IMG/VR virus record: IMGVR_UViG_2681813004_000019
Span: 1 to 6,049 of that record
Origin: a virus
Taxonomy: Duplodnaviria; Heunggongvirae; Uroviricota; Caudoviricetes
DNA length: 6,049 nt
Reading direction: 5' to 3' (one strand)
The stretch's first letter is position 1. Each line of letters opens with the position of its first letter. Below the pieces are notes generated by a model. That model saw only the letters and a program-made list of their open reading frames with translations. It was not told where the DNA came from and searched no databases. Below are positions 1 to 6,049 of the stretch, in pieces. Made by a program: the position numbers and the translations under genes.

Positions 1-804
1 ATGAAGCGCATGCATGACGCCTTCCCTAATCGTCCGGCATCTTCTATCACGGTTAAGCAATGGGTTGACCTGCTTACCGAAGAAGAAAAAGATAATCCAC
101 GCCGAGCAAGGCAGGTGCTAAGTCAACTAAGATCAGCAATTAGTTGGTGCATGCGGCGTCAGTTGATAGATAGTTGCGCAATTATGAGCATCCAGCCAAG
201 GGACTTCGGCTCCCGTGCTGAGGTAGGGGATCGGGTACTGTCGTATCACGAACTGGCTAAGATTTGGCTTGCTATTGAAAGAAGCCGTGCGTCTACGTCA
301 AATAAGCTCCTTCATCAGATGCTTATGCTGTGGGGGGCGAGGCTCTCAGAGCTTAGGCTGGCAACAAAGACAGAATTTGACCTGCTGGACAACGTATGGA
401 CCGTACCGAAAGAGCATAGCAAGATGGGTAATGTTATCCGCCGTCCAATCTTCGAACAAATTAAGCCTTTCCTCGATAAGGCCATGACAACGTACAATGA
501 TGTTCTTTTCCCTGGAGAAGACATAAACAAACCGATCAGCATCGCTGCAGCCAACCGATTCGTAAATAGAATAAGGGGAGGGATGGATATAGGTTACTGG
601 CGAACACATGATTTCAGAAGAACGCTTGTTACACGTCTGTCCGAGATGAATGTCGAGCCTCATGTTACTGAGCGAATGCTCGGTCATGAACTTGGCGGGA
701 TAATGTCCGTATACAATAAACACGACTGGATAGAGGCTCAGCGCAAAGCGTATGAGCTTCACGCTGATAAATTGTTCTGGCACATCAGGAGCATTTCTGA
801 TTAA
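1..804 (+). CDS. int: Tyrosine-type phage integrase, C-terminal catalytic part; the gene almost certainly starts upstream of the window
   Basis: The 267-aa frame from position 1 contains the catalytic-domain motifs HDFRRT (His-x-x-Arg), LGH and a C-terminal Tyr in SVYNKHDW, ending at a TAA at 802-804. The N-terminal DNA-binding portion expected for a ~350-400 aa integrase is missing, so the ATG at position 1 is probably internal. Confidence 0.85.
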   Translation: MKRMHDAFPNRPASSITVKQWVDLLTEEEKDNPRRARQVLSQLRSAISWCMRRQLIDSCAIMSIQPRDFGSRAEVGDRVLSYHELAKIWLAIERSRASTSNKLLHQMLMLWGARLSELRLATKTEFDLLDNVWTVPKEHSKMGNVIRRPIFEQIKPFLDKAMTTYNDVLFPGEDINKPISIAAANRFVNRIRGGMDIGYWRTHDFRRTLVTRLSEMNVEPHVTERMLGHELGGIMSVYNKHDWIEAQRKAYELHADKLFWHIRSISD

Positions 805-2186: not shown

Positions 2187-3101
2187 TTAGCCACAGTTTA
2201 CCTCCTGCGGCGGTTCTGGTAGCGGCATCCAGAACAAGACGTTCCCTAACCACGATAAAGTGCCGTCGCTCAACTCCACGTATTCCCCTTGTACCTGTCC
2301 TGCCATATACTCGCCGTGCTTTGAATAAATTAAAATCCAATCATCTTGAGCGGGCATTCGCTCACTACAGCTTATCCAACTATCCGGAGTTACCGGAGAG
2401 TTGCCCGACAGCTCGTTCAACTTGTAAGTTTGGCTTACAGATTCGGCTTCCAGTGGCGGTAAATCTGGCACTGTTACGCCAAACAACGCTGCCAGTGCAC
2501 GATAGTTTTGCTCACTGTGATAGCGGCCTTTACAGCGAACCAGTTTTTCCGCAGCGGATTTGATTACTTCCAGTTCTGCTACCCTCTGCTGATACGTTAA
2601 TGACTCCTGTGCCAGCCCAGCATTCCAGTCTCGCAGTTCTGCTATGTGCTTCTCTGATGCTTCAAGTAACGCCTGCTTATCGCGTAGCGCTTCTTCCAGT
2701 TCAGCAACATGGCATTCACTATCAATAAGGTTGTTATCTGCGGCTTCCTGCTCTGATTTGCGCATCAAAACAACGTGCTTTAATGCGTCCTGGGCTTTCT
2801 GAAATTTCAGTGCATAGTCAGTGGCGATTTTTTCCAGTTCTGCGATACACTTGTTTTGGGCTTCCCGTTCATCCAGCAGTGCCTGCACTACTTTAGGGTT
2901 GAAAGCTGCGATAAATTCTGCGTTGTTCTCTGCATTTTTCTGGCCGTCAAAGCCAGGCCATTTGATAATGTCTCCGCAACGTTCATCCCCCGGCGTATGC
3001 ACCGCATATGTATCAGTGCCCGGCGAAATGAATGCGACCCATTCGCCCTGTGTTGCCTGTTTTGCTAACTCACGCAGTGCCTGATAGTCAATCTTGCTCA
3101 C
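2187..3101 (-). CDS. Ea22-like phage protein with a coiled-coil middle region and a DUF551-like C-terminal domain (304 aa)
   Basis: The N-terminus [21 protein letters not shown]...[10 protein letters not shown] matches the recalled ead/Ea22-like pattern. The middle is rich in heptad-like charged residues. The C-terminus carries the W/P-rich DUF551-type signature ([11 protein letters not shown]...WMPLPEPP). It uses a GTG start preceded by AGGAGG at 7 nt, and the start overlaps the stop of the upstream 55-aa ORF (GTGA). Confidence 0.7.
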
Positions 3102-3265
3102 TGGTTGCCTCCTTTACGCCACATCGCATTCAGATATTTGTTTTGATTCACTGATGGAAAAGAATTTCTCTTAAGCAATTCCTCTCTCGATGGCATTGGC
3201 TTTACGCGTTGGCGAATAATCATTTCTGCCGGAAGAATGCCGGGATTGTATGCAAGTCCTCTCAT
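3098..3265 (-). CDS. Small phage protein of unknown function (55 aa); its first 12 codons lie inside direct-repeat copy 1 and it has no good Shine-Dalgarno
   Basis: Hand translation gives [55 protein letters not shown]. Its stop overlaps the Ea22 GTG start. The sequence upstream of the ATG is chromosomal-like insert DNA without an SD, whereas the duplicated copy of the ATG at 3954 keeps a GAGGAA SD. Confidence 0.4.
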
Positions 3266-3271
3266 GGTAAA
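3231..3271. repeat. 41-bp perfect direct repeat, copy 1
   Basis: GGAAGAATGCCGGGATTGTATGCAAGTCCTCTCATGGTAAA is identical to 3920-3960, an offset of 689 bp. The flanking bases differ on both sides. Confidence 0.95.
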
Positions 3272-3343
3272 CCCGGTAGCCGTAAGGGATAAGCCGAGGG
3301 CACCGCGCAGCGGCGATTTTGTTCGCCAGAGCCCGGGGGTGCA

Positions 3344-3369
3344 GGGGGCGGCGGCGATTGGCCGCCCCC
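3344..3369. repeat. GC-rich perfect hairpin (9-bp stem, 8-nt loop)
   Basis: GGGGGCGGC-ggcgattg-GCCGCCCCC lies inside the inserted segment. No U-tract follows it on either strand. It could be a chromosomal extragenic repeat or structural element. Confidence 0.4.
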
Positions 3370-3481
3370 TGCGCGCTCCTTGCGCCAGTGATTATATGAA
3401 GCAATGCACATGACAGGAGCGCAACAGGATGAGAGACTGAAATATTCTCGTTATTTTCGGACCTGATGACATTAATTAATT

Positions 3482-3565
3482 TTAAAATATCATCTTAAAT
3501 ACGCCAGTCACCACCAGTAGCCCAATCAGGAAAATAATCAATACAGCCCAGAGTATAATTTTCAT
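3482..3565 (-). CDS. yohP: 27-aa hydrophobic single-pass membrane peptide resembling E. coli YohP (identification from memory)
   Basis: Hand translation gives MKIILWAVLIIFLIGLLVVTGVFKMIF with a TAA stop. AAGGA lies 6 nt upstream of the ATG. The peptide is almost entirely hydrophobic, consistent with one transmembrane helix. Confidence 0.5.
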   Translation of the reverse strand: MKIILWAVLIIFLIGLLVVTGVFKMIF

Positions 3566-3818
3566 TGGCGTTCCTTTATTTGTGAGTGCTGAATAAGTAT
3601 AGGAAAAAACGAAGCCCTTTGCCGTTATCCATAAACGATTAAGATAAATCGGAAGATATCATTCACTTAGTGTATATTTTTCTGGATATGTCGTTTTATT
3701 GCTACTGATGTATTGCCACGCGAAACTAAAAAATATATCGCAACACACGGTAATCTTCGCGCACCTTTTCTTACCTGATTATTCCCCCATGAATCGTGAT
3801 TCCTTTTATCCAGCCATC

Positions 3819-3918
3819 GGGTAATGCTGCCAACTTACTGATTTAGTGTATGATGGTGTTTTTGAGGTGCTCCAGTGGCTTCTGTTTCTATCAGCTGTCC
3901 CTCCTGTTCAGCTACTGA
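3819..3918 (+). mobile_element. insA: IS1 terminal fragment: left inverted repeat plus the first 14 codons of insA, truncated
   Basis: GGTAATGCTGCCAACTTACTGAT...GAGGTGCTCCAGTGGCTTCTGTTTCTATCAGCTGTCCCTCCTGTTCAGCTACTGA matches the recalled IS1 end and the InsA N-terminus MASVSISCPSCSAT. Identity stops at 3918, one base before repeat copy 2. Confidence 0.8.
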
Positions 3919-3919
3919 A

Positions 3920-3960
3920 GGAAGAATGCCGGGATTGTATGCAAGTCCTCTCATGGTAAA
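3920..3960. repeat. 41-bp perfect direct repeat, copy 2, abutting the IS1 fragment
   Basis: Identical to 3231-3271. It contains the ATG (3954) and first 12 codons of the small ORF, here preceded by the native GAGGAA SD and the stop of the 98-aa gene. Confidence 0.95.
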
Positions 3961-3964
3961 TTCC

Positions 3965-4261
3965 TCAGTCATTACTGATAGCGCCATAGCGTGAGCGGTA
4001 ATTACGCAGGCGCGGGTCGATATATTCAGGGAATTTGTCTATTGTCGCTTTTCGCAACGGTCTCATTGCTGTTTCGTTTGTTCGGTCCTTCTCATCTTTT
4101 AACGCGAGTTGTATATCGCGTCGGTACATCCGTTCTGCTTTTGTTTCTGGTGGCAGATCAATAAACGTGTCGAAAATGTTTTTGATATTTTCCAGCACCT
4201 CCGCCTTGGAGCTACCGGAGCAATTGCGCGGGTCATCCGCACCATACAGAGGCGCTGGCAT
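3965..4261 (-). CDS. Phage protein of unknown function (98 aa)
   Basis: The ORF is in the six-frame track, lies in the operon between the SSB-like gene (stop at 4285) and the split small ORF, and is charged and hydrophilic. I do not recognise a family. Confidence 0.45.
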   Translation of the reverse strand: MPAPLYGADDPRNCSGSSKAEVLENIKNIFDTFIDLPPETKAERMYRRDIQLALKDEKDRTNETAMRPLRKATIDKFPEYIDPRLRNYRSRYGAISND

Positions 4262-5856: not shown

Positions 5857-5989
5857 TTTTTGGAACTCCTGGCTGATTAAGTATGTCGATAAGGCGTTTC
5901 CATCCGTCACGTAATTTACGTGTGATTCGCTCAAGTAAAGATTCGGAAGGGCAGCCAGCAACAGGCCACCCTGCAATGGCATATTGCAT
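5849..5989 (-). CDS. cIII: CIII-like protein (lambda cIII family, FtsH inhibitor that stabilises CII), 46 aa as encoded here
   Basis: MQYAIAGWPVAGCPSESLLERITRKLRDGWKRLIDILNQPGVPKNG matches the recalled lambda CIII sequence, including the central amphipathic helix. A strong RBS AAGGAG lies 6 nt upstream of the ATG. Confidence 0.8.
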   Translation of the reverse strand: MQYAIAGWPVAGCPSESLLERITRKLRDGWKRLIDILNQPGVPKNG

Positions 5990-6049
5990 GGTGTGCTCCT
6001 TATTTATACATAACGAAAACGCCTCGAGTGAAGCGTTATTGGTATGCAT

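Follow-up and report, generated by a model that had tools for sequence, protein, structure and literature searches.

Morons, as recognised in the comparative genomics of lambdoid phages and HK97, are extra transcription units that part two genes which in related phages are neighbours. Host DNA is likewise captured by the lambda gal and bio specialised transducing phages, which arise illegitimately at short homologies. The insertion sequence IS1, when it transposes, usually leaves a target duplication of 8-11 nt.

In Escherichia coli, the native YohP protein increases in stationary phase, in minimal medium and upon oxygen limitation (PMC12719787). It is inserted into the membrane post-translationally via SRP and SecYEG/YidC (PMC7549839). 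The effects described for YohP comprise a loss of membrane potential, the phage-shock response, accumulation of ppGpp, nucleoid condensation, 'metabolic silencing' and a quiescent state (PMC12719787, PMC12542507); the depolarisation described in the literature is sublethal only (PMC12542507). In Salmonella, the orthologue STnc1330/yohP depends strongly on RpoS and on the growth phase (PMC5437024).

Here, we describe a yohP copy that resides in an E. coli prophage, within a stretch of 6,049 nt that was analysed as a whole and is referred to as the window. The copy has the peptide, the ribosome-binding site, the upstream intergenic region and the 3' flank in common with chromosomal yohP of E. 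coli K-12 (99.6% identity over 549 nt). It differs from the chromosomal gene in its ectopic position in an early-left operon, in its truncated neighbours (31 nt of mdtQ and 99 nt of IS1) and in that it should be readable from a phage promoter.

Results

The prophage and its early-left region

Contig AOTC01000242.1 from the draft E. coli assembly GCA_001447405.1 matches the window at 100% identity from end to end, is therefore its source, and ends 70 nt past it. The prophage is integrated beside sbcB, and the window covers a lambdoid/P22-like early-left region in which genes for an AntA antirepressor, an Ead/Ea22-DUF551 protein, DUF2737, the anti-RecBCD protein Abc2, DUF669, an AAA ATPase, Kil and cIII surround yohP on the minus strand, while the integrase gene lies on the plus strand at the left end of the prophage region. 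An Rfam match to the lambda cIII thermoregulator RNA (window 5944-6002, minus strand; 88.5 bits, full length) confirms that this is a lambda-type early-left operon. A preliminary description, made from the sequence alone, had placed yohP inside the prophage and in the orientation of a pL-type early operon, and it was right on both counts: phage sequence rather than host flank is present on either side, and all surrounding phage genes are on the minus strand.

The integrase gene carries a nonsense mutation at codon 108 (TAC to TAA; positions 6170-6172 of L005, just upstream of window position 1, and the same in L004). The window's ORF 1..804 represents only the C-terminal 267 amino acids of the integrase, restarting at an internal ATG. 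Judged from this mutation, the prophage is probably unable to excise.

Two further elements were noted in the region. The Rfam family sRNA-Xcc1 (RF02221) matches positions 1880-1968 of the minus strand, between antA and ead/Ea22, over its full length with 69.3 bits (gathering score 53). The ead/Ea22-DUF551 gene contains copies of a 16-nt motif, CTTCCAGTTCTGCTAC, at 2567-2846; the first three are spaced by 63 nt and the fourth follows 138 nt beyond. These copies probably reflect a repeated coiled-coil segment.

An intact yohP gene among phage genes

The product of ORF 3482..3565, 27 amino acids in length, is MKIILWAVLIIFLIGLLVVTGVFKMIF and is identical to the RefSeq entry 'small membrane protein YohP' (WP_000691708.1) from the native E. 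coli locus. Pfam family PF25659 (YohP) matches the peptide over its full length (residues 1-27; E=1.8e-13). The score of 50.6 bits, where 27 is the cut-off, is far beyond chance, and membership in the YohP family stands. The family's traits, a length of about 27 residues and one hydrophobic helix with a lysine near each end, can be read from the sequence as K2, the core IILWAVLIIFLIGLLVVTGVF and K24. The yohP locus is characterised by its conserved position between dusC and mdtQ (PMC12719787); the prophage copy, located beside sbcB, has fragments of this neighbourhood only. This position defines the locus and not the protein family, and its absence leaves the assignment to YohP intact.

The ORF with a good ribosome-binding site that had been proposed at these exact coordinates is borne out: it lies on the minus strand, with an AAGGAA motif 5 nt before the ATG (Table 1), and the resemblance to YohP turned out to be full identity. 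The suggestion that such a gene is missed by length-thresholded ORF callers proved mistaken, as the gene caller of the source collection did call a 27-aa gene and PGAP annotates yohP routinely. In the gene table of AOTC01000242.1, a 27-aa PF25659 gene is listed between Abc2 and DUF2737. As a gene, yohP is well known, and finding it in a prophage does not alter the biology of YohP.

Table 1. Position of the features in and around the inserted segment (window coordinates)
Feature	Position	Strand	Remarks
DUF2737 gene	3098..3265	-	ORF intact, ATG at 3265; parted from its native Shine-Dalgarno sequence GAGGAA, which is left upstream of duplication copy 2
41-nt duplication, copy 1	3231..3271	.	phage DNA; holds the first 12 codons of DUF2737
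Host chromosome patch, 549 nt	3272..3819	.	99.6% identity to L002 (native dusC-yohP-mdtQ) 2500-3048; contains yohP, the mdtQ start, all of the intergenic region between these two genes and a portion of the dusC-yohP intergenic repeat
Hairpin, 12-bp, G+C-rich, without U tract	3341..3372	-	native 3' flank of yohP
yohP CDS	3482..3565	-	27 codons plus stop, ATG start; protein identical to chromosomal YohP
yohP-mdtQ intergenic region, complete	3566-3788		223 nt, inside the patch
Shine-Dalgarno sequence AAGGAA	3571..3576	-	5 nt before the yohP ATG; read from the sequence
CTATACT, sigma-S-type -10 element	3596..3602	-	about 30 nt upstream of the yohP ATG; read from the sequence
First 31 nt of mdtQ	3789-3819	+	inside the patch
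IS1, terminal 99 nt	3820..3918	+	left inverted repeat and insA start; 100% identity to IS1 in L003
Chimeric 39-aa ORF	3835..3954	-	N-terminal 12 aa of DUF2737 plus antisense IS1; keeps the native Shine-Dalgarno sequence GAGGAA
41-nt duplication, copy 2	3920..3960	.	exact match to copy 1; phage DNA resumes at 3920
Abc2 (anti-RecBCD protein 2) gene	3965..4261	-	upstream neighbour of the insertion; adjoins DUF2737 in the empty-site prophage

Composition of the inserted DNA

The patch between abc2 and DUF2737 amounts to 648 nt and consists of 549 nt of the native yohP locus and a 99-nt IS1 end. The preliminary description had spoken of a captured copy and had proposed a comparison of its flanks with the chromosomal locus; the term is apt for host DNA lodged between phage genes that are adjacent in other phages, and the comparison revealed that 3' flank, upstream intergenic region and mdtQ start are retained at 99.6% identity. 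Relative to the nearest native loci examined, only two mismatches, at window positions 3757 (T) and 3812 (A), are present in the 549 nt; these could be alleles of the lineage or mutations acquired after copying. One of them, in mdtQ codon 8, is 8 nt away from the IS1 joint. The practical absence of divergence from the chromosomal allele points to a very recent event. The IS1 segment begins exactly at the IS1 tip, GGTAATGCTGCC, which abuts mdtQ codon 11, implying that IS1 had been inserted in this codon at the donor locus and that the patch holds a relic of mdtQ::IS1. Many complete E. coli genomes have IS1 at another, recurrent site in the gap between yohP and mdtQ (EA7 type; window 3705-3715, L003 2934-3711), and the yohP-mdtQ region seems to be an IS1 hotspot.

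The 214-nt 3' flank of yohP folds at -81.6 kcal/mol (z = -3.9). The dusC-yohP intergenic region (window 3272-3441; L002 2388-2670) contains a G+C-rich, structured repeat of about 280 nt that recurs, with 85-94% identity, at a median of 3 and a maximum of 8 places in an E. coli genome and is missing from the dusC-yohP locus in about a third of the genomes; no Rfam family matches it. Around the patch, an Rfam search at a permissive threshold yielded AgvB alone, at chance level (22.9 bits versus a gathering score of 56), and no Rfam antitoxin RNA was found near the yohP copy.

Joints and target duplication

Compared with the empty-site prophage, the event is an insertion of 648 nt together with an exact duplication of 41 nt of the target. 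The region is bracketed by a 46-nt direct repeat (3226-3271 and 3915-3960). A reading of this repeat as tRNA-associated att sites was discarded: no tRNA was found, and the repeat is the start of the phage gene for DUF2737. At the left joint a single nucleotide (A) is common to phage and chromosome. The right joint exhibits microhomology at 6 of 7 positions, IS1 having CTGACGG and the phage CTGCCGG; the window reads CTGAAGG, and base 3919 (A) matches neither parent.

Transposition of IS1, or of a composite transposon, was likewise rejected, given that the IS1 tip abuts mdtQ and not the phage, that one 99-nt stub is all that is present and that the duplication measures 41 nt. The 41-nt duplication and the single truncated IS1 end with its tip on mdtQ instead suggest that IS1 was a bystander in the donor locus. 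By their sequence, the joints appear to be illegitimate and the product of neither IS1 transposition nor site-specific recombination.

The empty site and the rarity of the arrangement

The window's 304-aa Ea22-like protein was found on only two contigs in the whole collection, from GCA_001447405.1 and GCA_014391625.1. The prophage of GCA_014391625.1 is also located next to sbcB, is 100% identical over all 9,284 shared bases and has the int nonsense mutation in common with the filled-site prophage of GCA_001447405.1. Its site is empty: the 41-mer is there once, and Abc2 directly neighbours DUF2737. The two are the same prophage, probably immobilised, in near-isogenic E. coli. The abc2 and DUF2737 genes abut in L004, L001, JEP4 and Stx2 phages.

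A yohP gene is matched in 5,422 of the 5,426 complete E. coli genomes, at a median of 1 and at most 2 places per genome, and on no plasmid record of that collection. Matches in a plasmid collection were set aside, the records concerned being 0.3-4.9 Mb in size and likely chromosomes or chromosome fragments. The arrangement in a prophage occurs in none of the 5,426 genomes and in none of 50,697 phage records, and the mdtQ::IS1 joint is likewise absent from the 5,426 genomes as well as from three representative Escherichia/Shigella loci. In the phage collection, tblastn with YohP gave no match, a search in which the low-complexity filter may mask the peptide, and blastn with yohP DNA gave only an unannotated 1,458-nt Salmonella fragment of 77% identity that we take for host DNA. 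Among 2.9 million IMG/VR contigs, none was hit by degenerate patterns that allow for all synonymous codings of the peptide or of its core. Neither of the chimeric ORFs, 3835..3987 and 3699..3824, which were looked up as indicators of further carriers or of a native mdtQ::IS1, is on record. In these collections, the prophage yohP is a one-off that is confined to one lineage and does not represent a phage gene family.

Expression signals and effects on neighbouring genes

The CTATACT element (Table 1) would be the native yohP promoter. On the minus strand, a scan for consensus promoters gave nothing that resembles a sigma-70 promoter; an intrinsic terminator was not found, nor was a terminator-like site preceding yohP. 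The patch brings along its own ribosome-binding site, sigma-S-type -10 element and 3' flank. Expression of the copy should therefore follow that of the native gene and would take place in stationary phase or starvation, adding to yohP dosage. Upon induction, read-through from pL would be expected because yohP is co-oriented with the operon and no terminator-like site stands ahead of it. Such read-through assumes antitermination; no N-type antiterminator was identified in L004.

Concerning the neighbours, abc2 is faced in antisense by the promoter region of mdtQ and by the IS1 end, and the strong hairpins that follow yohP may exert polar effects on ea22-antA-xis. The chimeric ORF joining DUF2737 and IS1 is not on record as a called gene and is probably without function. 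These side effects of the insertion do not look adaptive for the phage.

Discussion

The locus described here can be set against several known ways in which additional genes come to lie in phage genomes. It resembles morons in that the insertion separates abc2 and DUF2737, which abut in related phages, and possibly in that it brings its own promoter-like and ribosome-binding signals. The position expected of a moron is thus present, and with respect to signals there is the CTATACT -10 element, no sigma-70 consensus on the minus strand, no intrinsic terminator and hairpins without a U tract. Unlike morons, the insert is conserved in no phage and is a very recent copy from the host chromosome that came with fragments of other genes and duplicated 41 nt of its target; recurrence is lacking, with zero occurrences in 50,697 phage records and in IMG/VR and with an isogenic empty site. 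In common with the lambda gal and bio captures, the joints between host and phage DNA have little or no homology, but the host DNA does not adjoin the attachment site and forms an internal insertion with target duplication instead of a substitution at a prophage end. With IS1 transposition and composite transposons it shares an IS1 end as part of the inserted DNA; it departs from them in the single truncated end, the tip on mdtQ and the 41 nt of duplication. IsrI/STM14_3199 of Salmonella Gifsy-1 is, like the yohP copy, a small prophage ORF that is probably under sigma-S control (PMC5437024); its sequence is unrelated, and it is stable on Gifsy-1 in several strains, whereas the yohP copy is a one-off of a core gene. 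The patch is not a recognised toxin-antitoxin system. Taken as a whole, the arrangement would be a new single instance of an event of known kind, the capture of host DNA by a prophage.

We consider it likely that the patch is a recent, strain-specific, microhomology-mediated copy of host DNA in a decaying prophage and, functionally, an extra sigma-S-driven copy of yohP. The donor would have been the strain's own chromosome, from which a stretch of 648 nt was copied that starts in the dusC-yohP intergenic repeat, spans yohP and 31 nt of mdtQ and takes in 99 nt of IS1. In a copy-choice template switch during replication, the nascent strand would leave the phage template after the 41-mer, copy the 648 nt of the mdtQ::IS1-yohP locus and then re-enter the phage 41 nt behind its point of departure. 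Fill-in repair of a staggered break that had captured a fragment would fit equally well. Either process, template switch or break repair, would be expected to leave joints and a duplication of this kind and would amount to ordinary illegitimate recombination.

As the filled site is known from one draft assembly (GCA_001447405.1), a misjoin has to be weighed, in which a small native yohP contig bounded by repeats was threaded between overlapping prophage contigs and a k = 41 overlap was left untrimmed. Such an origin is suggested by the draft status of the source and a contig break 2.1 kb away, by a duplication of exactly 41 nt, which is unusual for biology and an odd number typical of assembler k-mers, by the ends of the patch in repeated DNA (IS1 and the dispersed intergenic repeat of about 280 nt), by the homology of 1 nt only at the left joint and by base 3919, which is found in neither parent. 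On the other hand, a de Bruijn path can be built only if both joints are spanned by reads. In each of the three representative genomes that contain it, the patch's first 41-mer is single-copy, so a unitig would not end there, and a unitig entering IS1 should end about 40 nt in and not at nt 99. Furthermore, the 6-of-7 microhomology at the right joint is expected for real recombination and would by our estimate occur by chance in about 0.1-0.5% of cases, and the contig is reported in 2 samples. With these points taken together, we regard a misjoin as unlikely. The possibility that yohP belongs to the host flank of the prophage, or to host DNA enclosed by two tandem elements, deserves practically no credence: the segment is indeed native chromosomal, and the 46-nt direct repeat resembles att sites at first, but the prophage resides next to sbcB and not next to yohP, the segment is followed on either side by phage sequence from within the early operon, a phage gene starts with the repeat, and the host segment is only 549 nt long and ends in an IS1 stub. 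The phage flanks, the location at sbcB and the comparison with the empty site refute this reading.

If the copy in the prophage is genuine, it might be retained as a moron for a benefit to the lysogen, such as extra stress tolerance or quiescence, or to the phage, be it a Kil-like effect on membrane and cell physiology at induction or the exclusion of other phages. The intact transcription unit and its co-orientation with the early operon are in line with selection, and prophage-borne, sigma-S-dependent small proteins do exist, an example being IsrI/STM14_3199 on Gifsy-1 (PMC5437024). Against it stand the single occurrence beside an isogenic empty site, the absence of YohP from every phage collection searched, and a patch that is hardly diverged from the chromosomal allele, very recent in origin, laden with junk in the form of mdtQ and IS1 remnants and responsible for uncoupling DUF2737 from its Shine-Dalgarno sequence; the int nonsense mutation, moreover, leaves little scope for selection at the level of the phage. 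We therefore think it very improbable that the gene has been kept by selection. Equally small is the chance that a moron has been caught at birth, that is, that a self-contained, sigma-S-driven host gene was acquired by template switching and that extra or induction-coupled YohP already alters lysogen physiology. Were this true, deeper quiescence and stress tolerance could ensue, or a Kil-like depolarisation that affects lysis timing or superinfection.

The preliminary description had left the choice between an acquired phage role and a mere passenger. An acquired role finds no backing in a gene restricted to one lineage, with an empty site in an otherwise 100% identical prophage, no YohP in phages or IMG/VR, accompanying junk fragments and a nonsense codon in int. 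The passenger alternative fits best, with its useless mdtQ and IS1 fragments, a DUF2737 gene parted from its ribosome-binding site and a broken int. In our judgement, the yohP patch is a passenger of a decaying prophage, with a neutral or slightly disruptive effect, and not an adapted phage function.

The pair of filled and empty prophages reveals, base by base, how a host transcription unit can enter a prophage operon without transposase or integrase. Such an entry is marked here by joints in microhomology, by fragments of bystander sequences and by the 41 nt of duplicated target. For the specialist, this pair and the anatomy of its joints are a tidy illustration and not a surprise. Captures of this kind supply the material out of which morons are believed to originate in phages. 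For annotation, the case advises caution: a small membrane peptide encoded in a prophage is not necessarily a phage toxin.
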